Counted from the first letter of the stretch, positions 55,412 to 62,334 are shown. The stretch is 64,000 nucleotides of DNA from Promethearchaeota archaeon (GCA_048938385.1 JBHLMG010000002.1:96001-160000); one strand, 5' to 3'. Translations and numbers: made by a program. The notes: generated by a model not told the origin, from the letters alone.

Positions 55412-56122
55412 CTAAGACTTGAATTCAACAAGCAACCAAGCAATGAATATAATAATCCATGCAATAGCAGCGAGTATGAAGGTATAGAGCATAAATGGTG
55501 CTATAAATTGGACCAGCGCCATGAGCAAGGCAGCGATGAACCATAGGAAGATTCCCAACCAGCCAATCCAGGTCCACATCTTCGCGGCGCCCTCACGTTC
55601 TTTCGCAAGGCGATAGAGCACGAGGAAGGGTACTAAGAACATGTAGAAGAAGGCTAGCAAGCCACTGTATAATATGAAGTAAAACGGCATAGCGAGATAG
55701 GTAAGCACTCCATCTGAAACAGTCTGCACCGTAACTGGCGTGGCAAGGAACCACAAGAGTGTGAGCCAAGATAGCGTTCCCAAGATGGGGAGGTAAACAG
55801 CCCACATCCGCTTCTTAAACCACTCAAAATCGAGGCAGTAGAACACTAAGCAGAAGGCGTGGAGTCCAACAAAGGTGTATGCTCCAAGGTAGTACGGTAA
55901 TAGTTGAACAGCAGTCGCTACAGCTGGAAGATTGTAAATAGACGCAGCTAAACTCATGAAGGTTAGAAACCCGAAAACAACGGCAAGGAATCCACCGAAT
56001 CCCGATGACGGTGATCTACCTCTCAAGGATCCGATAATTCCAATCAGCGCAAATACCAAAAAGATGATGCAAAGTAGCATTATGGCTCCAAAATGGATGG
56101 GTGTTTCATGTATGTAGAGCAT
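55412..56122 (-). CDS. seven-TM membrane protein, paralog A
   Basis: 7 hydrophobic segments; N-terminus MLYIHETPIHFG shared with its neighbour. Confidence 0.85.
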   Translation of the reverse strand: MLYIHETPIHFGAIMLLCIIFLVFALIGIIGSLRGRSPSSGFGGFLAVVFGFLTFMSLAASIYNLPAVATAVQLLPYYLGAYTFVGLHAFCLVFYCLDFEWFKKRMWAVYLPILGTLSWLTLLWFLATPVTVQTVSDGVLTYLAMPFYFILYSGLLAFFYMFLVPFLVLYRLAKEREGAAKMWTWIGWLGIFLWFIAALLMALVQFIAPFMLYTFILAAIAWIIIFIAWLLVEFKS

Positions 56123-56242: not shown

Positions 56243-56968
56243 TTATTTTAACTTCGAAATTGCTCGAGTAGCTATAGTAAGTCCGATGTAACTTAGGATC
56301 AACCCAATGAGTCCAAGTCCGAGCGCATATGGCATGATGGGGGCAGCGAAGAAGACGACTGCCATGCACATTGCTGAGATATCCCACAAGAAAAGACCGA
56401 ACCAAGCTAGCCAATTTCCAGTCTTTAGGCTGCCCCCCTGCTCTTTCGTAACGCGATAGGTATGAATGAAGGGTATGATGAACATATAGATGATGGCGAG
56501 AACGCCACCATAGGTCACAACGACCAGTGGCATGGCGAGCCAATGCATGACTCCGTCAGAGACTACGGTTGTGGTGCCTGAAGTGGTGAATAGCCACAAC
56601 ACGACTAGAAACGAGATAGTGCCGATGAGGAAGAGGTACTTGAACCACTGTGGTAATTGAAGTGCCTTTACGCTGAACATTAAGAAAATCCCAAAAAAGG
56701 CGTACAGGGCTACACAAGACCACGCGCCAAGATAATAGGGTAAGAGTTGATCAGCTGTTGCGGTTGCTGGAAGATTGTACATCATGATGGCTAAGATAGA
56801 GTAAGTGAACAACAGAAAGAATAATGTCAAGAAGGTTAGCCAATTCCATTCCTTCCTTTCTTCGCTGGCAATCATTGCTCGAAAACTAACGAAAACGCCG
56901 TAAAGCAAAACTATCCAAGTCACAATTACAAGTCCGAAGTGAATTGGTGTTTCGTGAATGTAAAGCAT
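56243..56968 (-). CDS. seven-TM membrane protein, paralog B (start reassigned to 56968)
   Basis: Same MLYIHETPIHFG start and GGAGGGTTT SD context as paralog A; shared YNLPA.AT..QLLPYYLGA and VSDGV...LAMP. Confidence 0.85.
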   Translation of the reverse strand: MLYIHETPIHFGLVIVTWIVLLYGVFVSFRAMIASEERKEWNWLTFLTLFFLLFTYSILAIMMYNLPATATADQLLPYYLGAWSCVALYAFFGIFLMFSVKALQLPQWFKYLFLIGTISFLVVLWLFTTSGTTTVVSDGVMHWLAMPLVVVTYGGVLAIIYMFIIPFIHTYRVTKEQGGSLKTGNWLAWFGLFLWDISAMCMAVVFFAAPIMPYALGLGLIGLILSYIGLTIATRAISKLK

Positions 56969-57150
56969 TCCAAAGAAACCCTCCAATGTGCCCTCCTTTG
57001 CATATGTTATATAACGCTTCTGCTCATTCATTTGATTGTATGACGGAAATTCCGCCAAATTTCAAATGTATTCGTTGAATAATGGGTCGACCCAATTTGC
57101 GTTTTTTCCGCTTCTCTTTTGTTTTCAGAAAAAACTCTCCATCTTAAAAC

Positions 57151-57166
57151 GGAAAGCGTTTTAAAT
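57151..57166 (+). promoter_or_regulatory. candidate BRE/TATA box
   Basis: GGAAAGCG-TTTTAAAT; the TATA box is centred about 24 nt upstream of ATG 57186. Confidence 0.45.
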
Positions 57167-57185
57167 CTTCATCGTGTATAACTGC

Positions 57186-57218
57186 ATGGATAACGGGAGA
57201 CCCCCCGAGGAGGAATAG
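57186..57218 (+). CDS. candidate micro-ORF MDNGRPPEEE
   Basis: ATG at leaderless distance from a TATA box; NGRP shared with micro-ORF 61387..61440. Confidence 0.3.
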   Translation: MDNGRPPEEE

Positions 57219-57445
57219 AGCACACCTAACGCAGCTTCATTCCAATAAGCTAAATCACAATAGACCTGTTCCCTCTCAGCAAGGATTCTCAGTTATTCAT
57301 CCGCAGATACCGAACGAGGTAAAACAGACCATCGGCAACGGAACCTAACAAGGCGAATGGATGGGGTATCCTTCCCTGTGTCTTTCATTCCCCTCTCCCC
57401 CTCTCCTCCTTTATGTCCTCGTTCTGGACACCCCATCCCGTTATA

Positions 57446-57476
57446 GGGTGGCGCGGATTGCGTCACCCATTTTTTT
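57446..57476 (+). terminator. GC-rich hairpin plus T7
   Basis: GGGTGGCGC-GGATT-GCGTCACCC-ATTTTTTT. Confidence 0.65.
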
Positions 57477-57556
57477 ACGAATGGTTTTGGGCAAAAGGAT
57501 TGTTTTCAACGATCGGAGTTTTCAAATTTACCTTGATTTTCTGGATGAAGACCCGC

Positions 57557-58993
57557 CTATTCTTCCAGACACATCGTCGGAGGAACCTTCCATAATCTCT
57601 GGTTTGCTCTCCAAAGGATGTGTCGTTGGAGGGAGGGAAGAAGTGGAAGATTTCGTTTAAATCGTAATATCTTGGTCTTGAAAATTCTTGGAATAGTAAG
57701 GAGTGTTCGCGTTAACTGTTTGATAAGGCTTGGTCCGACAGTTGGGAGACCGATAAGGATAATGGCTCCATCGTCAGTAGGAAAAAGTTGTACCATCGGA
57801 TATTGGGTGATTAATTGATAGAGTATGTTGAGCGTTGGTTTCTCACAACTAATCAAAAGACAAAGAACATCTTCAAAAGCCATCCGGCTGAAGGTTAGAT
57901 ATGGGAAATAGGCTTCTTTTTGTCGAAGTTTACGAAGATGAGTCCAAATGGTTTTTTCTGATAATGGAAATGCGTTGTGGTGTAAGAGATCTCGTTGTTC
58001 GAATTTAGATAAAAGCCCTTCACAGGTGGTGATGGTTAGGAGCCAATCTGTTGGGTGAAAAGCCATGGGTTCTCCATGATAGATGAATCCTTGGAGTGGA
58101 GTGAACTGTGAACCATGTTCTTCGATGAACCGAAGAACCGCTTCGGTGTGGAGATCTGGTGAAATCTTCCACTGCTGTGAACCGTAATCATAGAAATCTA
58201 AACTTATGTTCGCGAAGAATCCACGAATTTGATGAATTTCTACATCATCTAAAAACACATCTTTTATCCATTGTATTGTTTGGTGTAGCTGTTTTAGCCA
58301 TTGAACTTGATCTGGCACAAACAGAGTGAAGACTCCGGAAATCTGATCGACATCAAACATCGCTCCAGTGAGAAAGGGGAAAGCATCGCCGAAGAAGAGT
58401 TGCTTGTTTAACCATTGTTTGAATCGCAGAGAAGTCTTAAGAGATGGTCCGCTGAAGTAAATTCCAAAATGAGCTAAACCGAATTTCGGGGGATTAAGGA
58501 TGCCAGCTACGCGAAGGCCATAACGAGTAAACAGAATTTGGCGATCCCGATTGATGGTCCGTGAACTAGTTTCTAACAACTTCGCAAGTGCCATGGTCCT
58601 TAGTTCTGGTTGAATTCCCTTGTGCTGAATGTATTGAATCTGTTTTCGGTTAAAATGCATAGGACGATACAACTGAAGACCAGCAGTGAGTAATTCTGAA
58701 ATTCGTTTTGGACTATGCAAGTGGTATTCTGCAATGATGTTTATCCTGTAAGCTAGTTCAGATGCCAATTCCTCAGAAATGGGCTGATTTTCAAAACTAA
58801 ACAGGGGATGATCAGGCAGATTGAGGTCTGTAAATGTCTGGGCGTGAAAAGCCCGTTTAAGATACAAGGTTATATGGGTAAGTAGGAGTTCAAGATCCGA
58901 TTTTGCGGGGCTTGGCTGAACTTCTTCTAAAATGGCTTGTTTTCGAATGTCAAATGATTGATAGGGATCTGGCACAACAAATCCCACCATCAA
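57557..58993 (-). CDS. tandem (double) Lrp/AsnC-like HTH regulator, paralog 1
   Basis: HTH LAKLLETSSRTINRD..., NPPKFGL, second HTH LSEKTIWTHLRKL; aligns over its length with 59706..61106. Confidence 0.8.
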   Translation of the reverse strand: MMVGFVVPDPYQSFDIRKQAILEEVQPSPAKSDLELLLTHITLYLKRAFHAQTFTDLNLPDHPLFSFENQPISEELASELAYRINIIAEYHLHSPKRISELLTAGLQLYRPMHFNRKQIQYIQHKGIQPELRTMALAKLLETSSRTINRDRQILFTRYGLRVAGILNPPKFGLAHFGIYFSGPSLKTSLRFKQWLNKQLFFGDAFPFLTGAMFDVDQISGVFTLFVPDQVQWLKQLHQTIQWIKDVFLDDVEIHQIRGFFANISLDFYDYGSQQWKISPDLHTEAVLRFIEEHGSQFTPLQGFIYHGEPMAFHPTDWLLTITTCEGLLSKFEQRDLLHHNAFPLSEKTIWTHLRKLRQKEAYFPYLTFSRMAFEDVLCLLISCEKPTLNILYQLITQYPMVQLFPTDDGAIILIGLPTVGPSLIKQLTRTLLTIPRIFKTKILRFKRNLPLLPSLQRHILWRANQRLWKVPPTMCLEE

Positions 58994-59330
58994 CCTTACT
59001 TCTTTTAGTTTTGTATAAACCTAGGCTTAATGAGAAAAAATTGCAGAAACTTGCCTCAAGTAAGACAAACCTCTAATTTCTCCTTGGGTAATAGATGCAA
59101 AACTATCATTATCGCACTGGAAACCAATGATTGACGCAAAATAACCGAGTTTAGAGGGAATAGAAACTGCTCCTGTGATGCCACTCCTATTAATTCCTCT
59201 AGAACTCTCCTTTCTTCTTCTTATAAGGTGGCTTAGTTTACCTGCATTTGGAGAAGATAATTTTCACGAACCCGATATCTCTCTTCTTCTCCCTCCTCCA
59301 AAAGCATACAACTCAAGGAGAAGAAAATCT

Positions 59331-59606
59331 ATGGCAAACGAATTCCCCATTCAGGAACCACAAAGCAAGGAATCGCCCCTCCTCAGCCCTACAGGCGAAG
59401 CGATACCAAACTCAGGGGTGAATGTGTGCTTTCTTTCTGTAGACCAATTCTCCGAGAGTGAAGTCTCTCGTCAACTTGCCGGAGTGTGCGCCCTTCTCCT
59501 TCGTATGCTTGCTCGGGACTTTGATGTACCCCGTCCCAAGGGCGTGCTGATCGTGCCTGCTTCAACATCGGAGAGGGTAGAGTTGAAAATAATACGGCGT
59601 GATTAG
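59331..59606 (+). CDS. small hypothetical protein (91 aa; start reassigned to ATG 59331)
   Basis: AAGGAG SD upstream; followed by a perfect 10-bp hairpin. Confidence 0.55.
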   Translation: MANEFPIQEPQSKESPLLSPTGEAIPNSGVNVCFLSVDQFSESEVSRQLAGVCALLLRMLARDFDVPRPKGVLIVPASTSERVELKIIRRD

Positions 59607-59626
59607 GCACAAACCTAGATGTCCAC

Positions 59627-59652
59627 GGGGCATTCCTTTATTGGAATGCCCC
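59627..59652. terminator. perfect 10-bp inverted repeat between convergent genes
   Basis: GGGGCATTCC-TTTATT-GGAATGCCCC. Confidence 0.6.
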
Positions 59653-59705
59653 CAGGGGAGGGATCAAGACTCGTATGAGCCACGCTCCTCCAGTCCAGTC
59701 TTATT

Positions 59706-61106
59706 CTAGATATCTCCGTCAGTGAATTCCCAAAATTGACGGCTTTCGTTCCATCGGCGGAAAAAATCTTGATCTAAACTGTTACCAAAATTTCGTTCCT
59801 GATGCACAGTTAATAAATCCTGAATATCATAGTATTTTATAACATCGCGAATGAGCGTTGCAATCTTGTCTCTCCAGCCTGTAGGGCGTTTAAAGAAAAT
59901 CAAAATTCCATCTTCAGATGGGTAAGTAAATGCTGCTGGAAACATCGATGCGAGCCATTGAAGTCGTCGGCGTGTCGGGAGATCACAAAGAATGCTAATC
60001 AGAATGAACTCCTCGAATCCTCCGCCACTGAAGTACATGATTGGAGTTATCATTTCCTCAGCTTTCAAACGCCTCAGATGTAACCAAATAGAGTTTTTTG
60101 AGAGATGAAATTCCCAACTTGCTAGGGTATTCCGAATGTCAGTTAGGGTGTCTTGTGGAGTGATACCGATATTTGCTAGAAGAAAATCGATTTGCCTAAA
60201 ATGAACTGGGAATCGAAAATCTTGGTAATGAATATATGCAATATCTTCCAAGCCCTCTTCACCTGGATCCTCAATTCTCTTAATGTCCTCAAATTCTGGA
60301 GGGCTCTGCCAGTTTCCATGTTTTGCATCATACAAGTCAAAGCGAATGTTCCAATACTTTTCTAGGACTCGATGAACATGGACTCGATGCAGAAAATTGC
60401 GTTTCAACCACTTTACCCGTTTCTCAAATAATTGGAATGCTCGTTGCTGAGATGGAACCGCGAAAGCCATGAATCCGTGAGAGAAGGTGACATCAAAAAC
60501 GAAGGCTGTTAGGAAGGGGAGCGAAGTTTGCCGAACCCAAGATTCTAAAGCTTTTGATTCCTCATAAGAGTGGGTTTGAAAAACAACACCGTATGTAGTG
60601 AGCTTAAATTTTCCACGGTTATCAATATAGACTCTTCGTAGACCGTTTTGTTCTTCTAATATTTGTAAGATCCGACTTGCTTTGTAACGCGTTAAGTTCA
60701 AATTCTGGGCTAATTTAGTTATGCTAGCCATGGGGTTCTTTGCCATTTGGTTCAGAATATCGACCTCTATGGTGGAAAATAGACGGTTAGAGCTTCGTTC
60801 CAATCCTATTAGCAACATCTCTTGAATTCTTGACACTGATCGGATACCATATTCATGGATGATGCGGATGCGATCTTTTAATGATTCAGCAAGTTCTGAA
60901 GAGAGCGCCGCTTGGGAGAACCGCATCTTCTGGTGACTTGGGTATTTCCTTTCTTCTGGAGTTAGAGCACCGGTTTCAACTAATTTGATGTATAATAATA
61001 CACTTTCAAATAGGCATTGAAGATTGTCCCGCTCCTCATTTGGAACCGAACGGGCGAGAATCTCATCGGTAATGTGTTTCAGTGGATGCTCAATCACTCC
61101 CGCCAT
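59706..61106 (-). CDS. tandem (double) Lrp/AsnC-like HTH regulator, paralog 2
   Basis: IEVDILNQMAKNPMASITKLAQNLNL HTH; second HTH LSKNSIWLHLRRL. Confidence 0.82.
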   Translation of the reverse strand: MAGVIEHPLKHITDEILARSVPNEERDNLQCLFESVLLYIKLVETGALTPEERKYPSHQKMRFSQAALSSELAESLKDRIRIIHEYGIRSVSRIQEMLLIGLERSSNRLFSTIEVDILNQMAKNPMASITKLAQNLNLTRYKASRILQILEEQNGLRRVYIDNRGKFKLTTYGVVFQTHSYEESKALESWVRQTSLPFLTAFVFDVTFSHGFMAFAVPSQQRAFQLFEKRVKWLKRNFLHRVHVHRVLEKYWNIRFDLYDAKHGNWQSPPEFEDIKRIEDPGEEGLEDIAYIHYQDFRFPVHFRQIDFLLANIGITPQDTLTDIRNTLASWEFHLSKNSIWLHLRRLKAEEMITPIMYFSGGGFEEFILISILCDLPTRRRLQWLASMFPAAFTYPSEDGILIFFKRPTGWRDKIATLIRDVIKYYDIQDLLTVHQERNFGNSLDQDFFRRWNESRQFWEFTDGDI

Positions 61107-61386
61107 AATGACAACTACCAGATTCTAAGACCCATAAAGGTTACTTCAACATGCTTACAAGATAAATTTGCTCTGAACCTTACAAATTTTAACAAACATC
61201 ACAGTACCTTGCTTTTTTAGGTAAGGAAAAAAAACCTTAGATCGCTTAAAAAGTAAAACCAAGCCCAGATAATCACATTCCTCCCATTTTACCCCTAAGA
61301 ATCCGTTTATATGCCAACATCGCTGCTTTACAATCTATTTTCTTTGCTTTTTATTTCTCCACACGAACCATCTTCTTGGTGGTAGC

Positions 61387-61440
61387 TTGAGCGATAGCAC
61401 ACTCATGAATGACCCAAATGGAAGACCTGATCCAATGTAG
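61387..61440 (+). CDS. candidate micro-ORF MSDSTLMNDPNGRPDPM (alternative ATG start at 61405)
   Basis: GGTGG SD before the TTG; TTTATAT near 61306; NGRP shared with 57186..57218. Confidence 0.3.
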   Translation: MSDSTLMNDPNGRPDPM

Positions 61441-61495
61441 GAAAAACTTCACACTCTACAGAGGGACAGGATACACTAAACACTCGACATTCTAG

Positions 61496-61526
61496 AAAAA
61501 GAAAGAATGGGCTACTTGCGTAGCCC
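61496..61526 (-). terminator. GNRA-capped hairpin plus U-tract after the ferredoxin
   Basis: Minus strand GGGCTAC-GCAA-GTAGCCC-ATTCTTTCTTTTT. Confidence 0.65.
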
Positions 61527-61576
61527 CCCGGCTCCAGGGTTGGGAAGAGCTCTGAGGAGGGATCCTCTGATTATTA

Positions 61577-61759
61577 TCAGAGTGTTATGGCCTCTTCAGG
61601 ACAGTTCTCAACGCAGGATTCGCACTCCACGCAAGCATCAGGGTCAGTAACCTTTGAGATGTTGTCTTGCAGGGTAAAACACTCGCTAGGGCAGACATCG
61701 ACGCAAGTTCCACATCCAGTGCATTTAGCTTCATCTACTTTAGGTGGCATTGTGTTCAT
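61577..61759 (-). CDS. 2x[4Fe-4S] ferredoxin
   Basis: CTGCGTCVDVCP and CVECESCVENCP. Confidence 0.95.
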   Translation of the reverse strand: MNTMPPKVDEAKCTGCGTCVDVCPSECFTLQDNISKVTDPDACVECESCVENCPEEAITL

Positions 61760-61890
61760 CTATCCTATGTGAATCAAGGCTCATCCCTAACCAGAGACAG
61801 GGATGAAAGTATTTTGACAGCAGAGCAGTTATATTTTAACTTTTACACACCTTCCAATTTTTTCCAATCGTAAGTGTAATAAACCCCCTT

Positions 61891-62334
61891 TTGCGAATCT
61901 TCTCTACTTCTCATCAGATGCTAATTGGAGATGATTGTATACCATCAAAGAAAAGCCGGATTTTCACTGAGGATGCCCCATTACCAGTGGGTCCGTATAG
62001 TCAAGCTATCCGTGCAGGTGATTTTCTCTTTGTTGCAGGTCAGGTTCCTGTGGATCCGACAACAGGTGACTTTGTTTTAGGATCAATAACAAACCAAACC
62101 CAACGAGTTATGGATAATATCAAACTGATACTTGAAGCTGCTGGGGCTAGTTTGAACGATGTCGTTCGTACTACCATTTACTTGACCAACATGCAAGACT
62201 TCAACGATGTTAATGAAGCCTATGGAAACTACTTTGACCTCGTTCCTCCCGCTCGATCCACTATTGGCGTGGCAGATTTACCGAAGGGTGTAGCGATCGA
62301 AATAGATGTCATCGCGTATCACCCGGAAAAATGA
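61891..62334 (+). CDS. ridA: RidA/YjgF family deaminase (true start probably downstream)
   Basis: AP.PVGPYSQA, AGQVP, F..VNE.Y..YF, PARS, LPKG..IEID. Confidence 0.93.
   Translation: MRIFSTSHQMLIGDDCIPSKKSRIFTEDAPLPVGPYSQAIRAGDFLFVAGQVPVDPTTGDFVLGSITNQTQRVMDNIKLILEAAGASLNDVVRTTIYLTNMQDFNDVNEAYGNYFDLVPPARSTIGVADLPKGVAIEIDVIAYHPEK

Follow-up and report, generated by a model that had tools for sequence, protein, structure and literature searches.

The window analysed here, a stretch of 64,000 nucleotides (G000:C2:96001-160000), belongs to the 2.48-Mb metagenome-assembled genome (MAG, 51 contigs) of a Promethearchaeota archaeon and carries, towards its far end, the genes of two paralogous regulators, regB and regA, both on the minus strand. 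The pair is bracketed by two unannotated micro open reading frames (micro-ORFs) on the plus strand, ORF1 on the regB side and ORF2 on the regA side, and encloses a conserved 91-aa ORF. Two seven-transmembrane (7-TM) genes lie beyond ORF1, and a ferredoxin gene, a RidA gene and an NMO-type oxidoreductase gene lie beyond ORF2. An initial annotation had joined the two micro-ORFs through a shared Asn-Gly-Arg-Pro (NGRP) motif. In the explanation that we regard as probable from comparing sequences, the frames are unrelated: ORF1 would be the start of an RNA gene, and ORF2 a micro-gene with a possible role in sensing translation. The compared genomes are all MAGs, with a completeness of 72-91%.

Both frames exist as described in the initial annotation, and the NGRP codons are those it had quoted. 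ORF1 runs from ATG 57186 to TAG 57218 and reads MDNGRPPEEE; ORF2 runs from TTG 61387 to TAG 61440 and holds a further in-frame ATG at 61405, from which it reads MNDPNGRPDPM. The three differences between the two NGRP words, whose silence had been taken as a sign of selection, carry no information, because a match that is picked at the peptide level has synonymous differences automatically. The 128 micro-ORFs of the window (8-30 aa, outside long ORFs) have 26 different 4-mers in common, of which NGRP is one, as well as some 5-mers. When the two regulator-flanking gaps were shuffled with their dinucleotides preserved, their micro-ORFs shared at least one 4-mer in 738 of 2000 shuffles (37%), and in 167 of 2000 if only the plus strand was read; the actual pair of gaps shares a second 4-mer, LRFF, besides NGRP. 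A scan of the six-frame translation of the whole 2.48-Mb genome returned 30 occurrences of NGRP, where 47 are expected from residue frequencies, and no other NGRP micro-ORF family. The NGRP common to ORF1 and ORF2 is a coincidence, and the frames are unrelated.

The initial annotation had proposed instead that both micro-ORFs represent one NGRP peptide family under common selection, as a signal, as a precursor resembling ribosomally synthesised and post-translationally modified peptides (RiPPs) or as an Arg-Pro stalling leader. Both frames do have Asp just before the motif and a Pro/acidic tail, and an Arg-Pro in the tail is common to the four Pro-rich micro-ORFs of this genome that we consider real. 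The sharing of 4-mers is at chance level, however, no RiPP-type enzyme was recognised by Pfam among the neighbours, and the orthologous sequences contradict the proposal on both sides: the ORF1 frame, which lies inside a conserved RNA, is intact in none of the 10 orthologous loci, being missing or disrupted in each, and N, G and R vary freely in the orthologues of ORF2. We consider such a family extremely improbable.

ORF1, judged from these loci, is a chance frame and not a gene. At the homologous place of the ten orthologous loci the frame is not conserved: none begins with ATG, six offer TTG or GTG, and the other four lack any start codon. The GGGAG word is followed by a 1-nt indel that throws the frame out of register; the resulting lengths lie between 13 and upwards of 60 codons, and only this genome has NGRP. 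The A and T of the ATG fall in a variable spacer that precedes G57188, the first base of the RNA, and the bases that read Asp-Asn-Gly-Arg form the predicted 5' strand of the helix closing this RNA, with a partner at 57439-57444 near its 3' end. By eye, the helix is consistent with a single change of U-A into A-U that separates the two genera; in the machine alignment the helix is only 70% paired. With the helix partially supported in this way, the Asp-Asn-Gly-Arg bases appear to be conserved as RNA and not as codons.

ORF2, according to the same kind of comparison, is very probably a real micro-gene under selection. An ATG-initiated ORF of 11-17 codons with at least three prolines starts 292-299 nt upstream of the regA start, on the divergent strand, in all eight evaluable loci of genus 1 (G003, G004, G007, G008, G009, G010, G012 and this genome). 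There is exactly one such Pro-rich ORF in each regA upstream region, the chance of meeting one in a 20-nt window being 0.0017 per region in shuffled sequence, and it is absent from the four of four genomes that have no regA at the locus. Upstream of regB, no Pro-rich micro-ORF was found in ten genomes. The gap between the ferredoxin gene and regA varies from 470 to 1536 nt across genomes and is not alignable; in this genome it spans 61107-61576, and it gave no significant nucleotide (BLASTN) or six-frame similarity to relatives. The conservation of ORF2 shows in position-anchored translation.

What is kept along the ORF2 series is the initial Met, an early Pro and the ending [acidic, Asn or Arg]-Pro-x-Pro-[aromatic or hydrophobic]-stop, a pattern to which only the Pro of NGRP belongs. 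Prolines amount to 3 of 11 codons in ORF2 and to 28.7% of residues over 24 members of the micro-ORF family. At the kept positions the Pro codons vary at the third base (27 CCA, 25 CCG, 19 CCC and 13 CCT), and all three stop codons are used in the family, which therefore points to selection on codons. Peptide-level selection, initially claimed for both frames, stands for ORF2 alone, where the place is fixed in 8/8 loci and the Pro codons vary only at the third base, and falls away for ORF1. As for the function proposed at first, Arg-Pro stalling does not suit ORF2, since Asp-, Glu-, Phe- or Ser-Pro, for the most part one of the first two, takes that place in the seven orthologues listed above. 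Neither does a RiPP precursor: the neighbours encode regulators, 7-TM proteins without a family, a ferredoxin, RidA and an NMO-type oxidoreductase, and a peptide of 11-17 residues is too short to include a leader.

Putative signals for expression precede the frame. A T-rich or TATA-like word stands about 40 nt before the ORF start in the relatives that were aligned (G007, G009 and G003), and most relatives have a purine-rich word resembling a Shine-Dalgarno (SD) sequence before the start, with varying sequence and spacing. In this genome the SD-like word lies 1 nt (C61386) before TTG 61387 and 19 nt before ATG 61405; the TTG start, which gives 17 codons, is plausible because the SD sits 1 nt before it. 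It could also be that nothing is translated at 61387-61440 and that the interval is a conserved DNA or RNA element of the divergent promoter, such as a set of regulator-binding sites or a small RNA, that happens to read as an ORF. A fixed distance to the regulator start would suit an operator as well; the nucleotide sequence across the ORF, however, is unconserved, with no BLASTN match, and the retention of an ATG, an SD-like word, a frame of 11-17 codons, a stop and Pro positions with third-base variation is what is expected of codons. We hold such an element to be very unlikely.

Table 1. Features at the two micro-ORFs, in window coordinates, and coordinates of the orthologues of ORF2.
Feature	Position	Strand	Remark
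Two 7-TM genes	55412-56122, 56243-56968	-	no Pfam match
Conserved inverted repeat T6CCG, ~15 nt, CGGA6	57102-57135	.	upstream of the RNA promoter
BRE/TATA-like promoter of the RNA gene (BRE, B recognition element)	57151-57166	+	TTTTAAAT at 57159-57166; nearly invariant in 10 genus-1 orthologues
ORF1, chance frame	57186-57218	+	first 31 bases of the RNA gene and 2 spacer bases
Non-coding RNA gene, ~289 nt	57188-57476	+	conserved nucleotide sequence with its own promoter and terminator
RNA domain around the CU-rich block	57359-57438	+	8-bp closing stem (57359-57366 / 57431-57438); covariation
CU-rich block, 47 nt	57374-57420	+	0 mismatches in 13 genomes of two genera
Terminator hairpin and T7 of the RNA gene	57446-57476	+	hairpin covaries
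regB, paralogous regulator, 478 aa	57557-58993	-	29% identical to regA
Conserved 91-aa core ORF	59331-59606	+	divergent neighbour of regB
regA, regulator, 466 aa	59706-61106	-	Pfam HTH_24 at residues 113-153
TATA-like box of ORF2	61347-61356	+	similar word in aligned relatives
SD-like GGTGGTAG of ORF2	61378-61385	+	1 nt before TTG 61387
ORF2, probable Pro-rich micro-gene	61387-61440	+	17 codons from TTG 61387 or 11 from ATG 61405
Hairpin then T-rich run, likely terminator of the ferredoxin gene	61509-61526	-	convergent with ORF2; read from sequence
Ferredoxin gene, 60 aa	61577-61759	-	86-91% identical in relatives
RidA gene	61891-62334	+	
NMO-type oxidoreductase gene	beyond RidA in the gene order	+	
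ORF2 orthologue	L023:1698-1733	-	
ORF2 orthologue	L024:191-226	-	
ORF2 orthologue	L025:1674-1721	-	
ORF2 orthologue	L026:1651-1698	-	
ORF2 orthologue	L027:1669-1710	-	
ORF2 orthologue	L028:5868-5918	+	
ORF2 orthologue	L029:1679-1732	-	

Similar micro-ORFs occur elsewhere. The strict ORF2 pattern has three occurrences in the 4.96 million six-frame positions of the genome, to which a looser pattern adds one. A second series is named after contig 51, where this genome has its own copy (L091:1965-2003:+), about 330 nt upstream of, and divergent from, a paralogous regulator; its orthologues were found in 16 of 16 loci with a readable region. A third, in six genomes, lies between two MarR/HTH_24 proteins of ~580 aa; on contig 23 of this genome, two Pro-rich ORFs of 10-11 codons with strong SDs (L092:1981-2016:+ and L092:4010-4042:-) flank the gene of a 573-aa MarR/HTH_24 protein, itself neighboured by a 583-aa paralogue. 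The first of the two is conserved in six genomes, this one included, with the pattern Met-Tyr/Trp-Pro-Pro ... Arg-Pro-acidic-Pro, and Arg-Pro is typical of this third series only. In G012, a member of the contig-23 type (L096:502-534:+) is followed within the next 40 nt by a second, partly similar 12-codon frame, possibly a tandem duplicate. A large winged helix-turn-helix (wHTH) regulator is the only constant neighbour in all three series. Outside the family, another Asgard family has a similar 9-codon ORF with an SD upstream of a homologous regulator (L020:3100-3129:+) and a third family has a weaker candidate; no such ORF was found beside the regulator in five of the seven loci of other Asgard families.

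Four micro-ORFs of this genome (61405-61440, L091:1965-2003 and the two of L092) end alike, in Arg-Pro-(x)-[Asp/Asn]-Pro-hydrophobic-stop, and in other species the tails of the regA type and the contig-51 type differ from each other. The likeness within the genome could reflect concerted change or gene conversion; it concerns one genome and may be due to chance.

The contig-51 ORF sits inside a strongly conserved leader, more conserved than the ORF itself (L091:1868-2119, alignment A3); behind the ORF come a hairpin and then a T-run, ahead of the next gene. Successive blocks in the 5' part of the leader could pair in the same order with the T-run, with a GT-rich block and with the SD of that gene: UCCAGC, ACAC and GGGAAAA face UUUUCCC, GUGU and GGUGGA just before the gene start. 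Such pairing, as predicted from the sequence, could sequester the SD, and a ribosome on the micro-ORF could relieve the sequestration. Homology between the 91-aa ORF of the window (59331-59606) and the ~90-aa gene that follows the contig-51 micro-ORF was considered and set aside (BLASTP E 0.43, not significant).

From the analogies set out below, we lean slightly towards ORF2 being a cis-acting sensor of translation through its Pro codons, over a free peptide, while giving the sensor somewhat less than an even chance. The interspersed Pro codons, with the acidic codons among them, would make translation of ORF2 slow or abortive, in dependence on aIF5A or on the supply of Pro-tRNA, and ORF2 would then serve as a translation-sensing leader, like MgtL and MgtP in bacteria. 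At orthologous and paralogous loci the ORF stands ahead of a downstream gene, which would have been lost in this genome; here ORF2 may influence read-through toward the ferredoxin gene that converges on it, or may work as a free peptide. In G006, G010 and G012 the gene that follows the regA-type ORF encodes a 314-aa zinc-ribbon protein. In the window, no co-directional gene stands between ORF2 and the convergent ferredoxin gene, and nothing comparable to the leader-SD complementarity was seen downstream of ORF2. The 314-aa protein (L022:6126-7070:+, L028 and L029) has several CxxC pairs, with 65% identity among the three copies; its gene is missing at the ORF2 site of this genome, which has only distant paralogues, on contig 25.

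The closest parallels are MgtL (17 codons) and MgtP (16 codons), encoded in the mgtA and mgtCBR leaders of Salmonella. The interspersed Pro codons of mgtL act through EF-P (PMC6460261), MgtP senses charged tRNA-Pro (PMC8092293), and Pro together with acidic residues destabilises ribosomes on MgtL (PMC12856214); interspersed Pro codons, often after Asp or Glu, let mgtL and mgtP respond to EF-P, tRNA-Pro and Mg2+ (PMC6460261, PMC8092293, PMC12856214). ORF2 resembles them as a very short ORF with its own ribosome-binding site, whose Pro codons are kept in evolution, interspersed and often placed beside acidic residues; by analogy, it could plausibly be read out here by EF-P, whose archaeal counterpart is aIF5A, or by charged tRNA-Pro. 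An ORF in a folded leader before a gene is found at the paralogous and some of the orthologous loci, and an ORF in a same-strand leader in G006, G010, G012 and the paralogous series, but not in the window, where the downstream gene is lacking. The two systems also differ in that the present one belongs to an Asgard archaeon, has no sequence homology to MgtL or MgtP, is always paired with a divergent Lrp-type regulator and has a micro-ORF known from sequence alone.

A eukaryotic parallel is offered by the upstream conserved coding region (uCC) of AZIN1, in which Pro-Pro-Trp before the stop acts as a sensor of eIF5A and polyamines (PMC8705083); eIF5A/aIF5A is common to archaea and eukaryotes (PMC8705083, PMC12856214). 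Both cases concern conserved short frames that keep Pro and an aromatic residue right before the stop, and several orthologues of ORF2 end in Pro-x-Pro-Trp-stop. The copy in the window, however, ends in Pro-Asp-Pro-Met, the prolines are interspersed and not consecutive in most members, and initiation is at AUG or TTG with an SD, in contrast to the near-cognate scanning initiation of AZIN1.

Several observations weigh against this account of ORF2. Generic Pro-rich micro-ORFs are not enriched genome-wide (134, with 103 in the reversed-sequence control), and the case for ORF2 therefore rests on positional conservation, not on its motif. The relatives share ancestry, so that multiplied probabilities overstate the case, and G006 has an unusual counterpart, an ORF of 52 aa whose end lies about 110 nt farther out. 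The stop codons and most of the non-Pro residues vary, unlike those of classical arrest peptides. The pairs between the contig-51 leader and the SD are all invariant, which leaves them without support from covariation, and they are degenerate in this genome's own copy. Finally, six species, this one and five relatives, keep ORF2 without a co-directional gene behind it, which suits a free peptide better than a leader.

That the product of ORF2 acts on the regulator as a free peptide is the main rival to the sensor, though we give it a somewhat lower chance. In a narrower and slightly less likely form, ORF2 would encode an unprocessed peptide of 11-17 residues that serves the divergent tandem-Lrp regulator as its cognate ligand or partner, as in a peptide-receptor cassette. 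Leaderless, unprocessed peptides that are sensed by a neighbouring cytosolic regulator do exist in Firmicutes (PMC10518010); their receptors are TPR proteins. The RopB/LCP and Rgg/SHP cassettes of Firmicutes have a tiny peptide gene of unprocessed size beside, and often divergent from, the gene of an HTH regulator, and their peptide sequences diversify between lineages (PMC10518010). The linkage of peptide gene and regulator is found here too, with fixed distance and strand in 8/8 loci and absence in the 4/4 without the regulator, and so is the constancy of the large wHTH neighbour across all three series. The middle and the tail of the peptides vary between lineages in the manner of pherotypes; what stays constant is Pro near both termini and an aromatic residue at the end, and prolines so placed would shield a free peptide from exopeptidases.

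The differences from these cassettes are considerable. The regulator here has a tandem Lrp/AsnC-like fold, for which Pfam gives HTH_24 only, whereas the RRNPP receptors of the cassettes combine an HTH with a TPR-type domain; the peptides are acidic and Pro-rich here and hydrophobic there. No exporter or importer family was recognised by Pfam among the neighbours, two of which are 7-TM proteins without a Pfam match, and at other loci the ORF looks like a leader inside a folded 5' region. We know of no Lrp-type protein that has been shown to bind a peptide, and of no demonstration of peptide signalling in archaea. The most specific version, in which ORF2 and its relatives would be Pro-capped peptides of 9-17 residues that bind back-to-back tandem-Lrp regulators and form a peptide-receptor switch, possibly a cell-cell signal, is less likely still. 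A literature search found no description of such micro-ORFs in archaea.

The RNA that begins inside ORF1 is conserved to a much greater extent than its surroundings. BLASTN finds it once in each of 13 genomes out of the 19 in the class, with 72-77% identity over its full length, whereas the flanking proteins are 35-52% identical; the 498-nt gap from regB to the 7-TM gene aligns well even where the proteins on either side share no more than 35-43% identity with those of the relative. G57188 is the exact first conserved base; the three before it vary. The indels of the region are not multiples of three, and no frame is kept on either strand; a coding reading, by a 99-aa plus-strand frame from 57361 or a short minus-strand frame starting in the CU-rich block (rich in C and U), was rejected because indels break both frames in relatives. 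Rfam 15, run on the plus strand of 56900-61900 with E up to 10, gave no family match for the RNA and only two noise matches. A divergent signal recognition particle (SRP) RNA or RNase P RNA was discarded as well, the archaeal SRP and RNase P RNAs scoring above their cut-offs elsewhere in the genome.

The RNA gene is bounded by signals of its own. Its promoter, compared in the 10 genus-1 orthologues with a readable upstream flank, stands about 22 nt before the conserved 5' G. Farther upstream, the inverted repeat at 57102-57135 is kept in the genus-1 copies with a readable flank, including copies far from the regulators, and is a candidate regulator-binding site or operator shared with the promoter of the divergent 7-TM gene. 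At the other end, the terminator hairpin has two pairs with double changes and seven with one-sided changes, and a T run follows it in most copies.

Inside the RNA, the 8-bp stem around the CU-rich block shows compensatory double changes in three of eight pairs, and in the 13 sequences every cell (100%) is paired. The block itself, without a mismatch in the two genera, could not be matched, even with three mismatches allowed, in any of 381 genomes from other families of the phylum. Its first third is complementary to the purine-rich 57207-57224 near the 5' end of the RNA. Such pairing would cross the covarying stem 57359-57366/57431-57438 and so create a pseudoknot or two exclusive folds. The pairs are scored as invariant, without covariation; as a side observation, the 5' strand at 57207-57224 changes in genus 2 and yet remains complementary to the block.

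C-rich or CU-rich base-pairing small RNAs that occlude SD sequences are known from bacteria, as in RsaE/RoxS, and from Methanosarcina. The RNA of the window is comparable to them as a stand-alone unit of a few hundred nucleotides from promoter to terminator, and its pyrimidine-rich stretch with CCUCC-like words could pair with SD-like purine runs. It differs in being much longer, in having ends that pair and no Rfam family, and in its 47-nt block, which is invariant across two genera and has no extended complementary target in the genome. A search of the genome for an antisense target of the block gave a longest complementary match of 14 nt, which is about chance level. A replication origin with origin recognition box (ORB)-like elements was also dismissed: measured against the ORB consensus, the block is a single copy, the order of elements is wrong, and it sits between a promoter and a terminator. 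Our best guess from the sequence is a structured RNA with an SD-complementary pyrimidine stretch.

In four genomes that have neither regA nor regB at the site, the 7-TM and ferredoxin genes are separated by the RNA gene alone, which therefore belongs to that older neighbourhood and not to the regulators. In these genomes (L032, L035, L041 and L042, compared with window 57059-61576) the RNA gene abuts the ferredoxin and RidA genes, and the block of regB, the 91-aa ORF, regA and the micro-ORF therefore looks like an insertion of about 4 kb, or like a deletion in those four. Of the regulators, regA has its nearest clusters, by sequence features and predicted structure, among archaeal HTH_24/HTH_AsnC-type proteins of 380-500 aa that include Lrp/AsnC ligand-binding types; by Pfam and by its feature and structure neighbours it is classed as a tandem Lrp/AsnC-like protein. 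The ORF between the regulators can be read as 143 aa (59175-59606), of which the 91-aa core from ATG 59331 is conserved and the hydrophobic N-terminal extension that begins at GTG 59175 has counterparts in G007 and G008 alone; neither form has a Pfam family match.

These findings caution that 4-mers shared between micro-ORFs, and 'silent' differences inside them, hold no evidential weight. The frame of ORF1 also marks an undescribed, highly conserved RNA of about 290 nt. Genes of 11 codons, such as ORF2 very probably is, escape annotation pipelines, and knowledge of regulatory micro-ORFs in archaea is close to nil; here a micro-gene appears to have been retained next to a double-Lrp regulator throughout a class of Asgard archaea, and seemingly in at least one further family too. 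If its peptide were a ligand, ORF2 and its regulator would be the first peptide-receptor pair in archaea and the first such cassette outside bacteria, with a receptor of the Lrp/RAM type instead of the TPR type. If proline or aIF5A-dependent translation were sensed, ORF2 would match, on the archaeal side, both MgtL/MgtP of bacteria and the eukaryotic upstream frames of the PPW type, in the lineage that is closest to eukaryotes.

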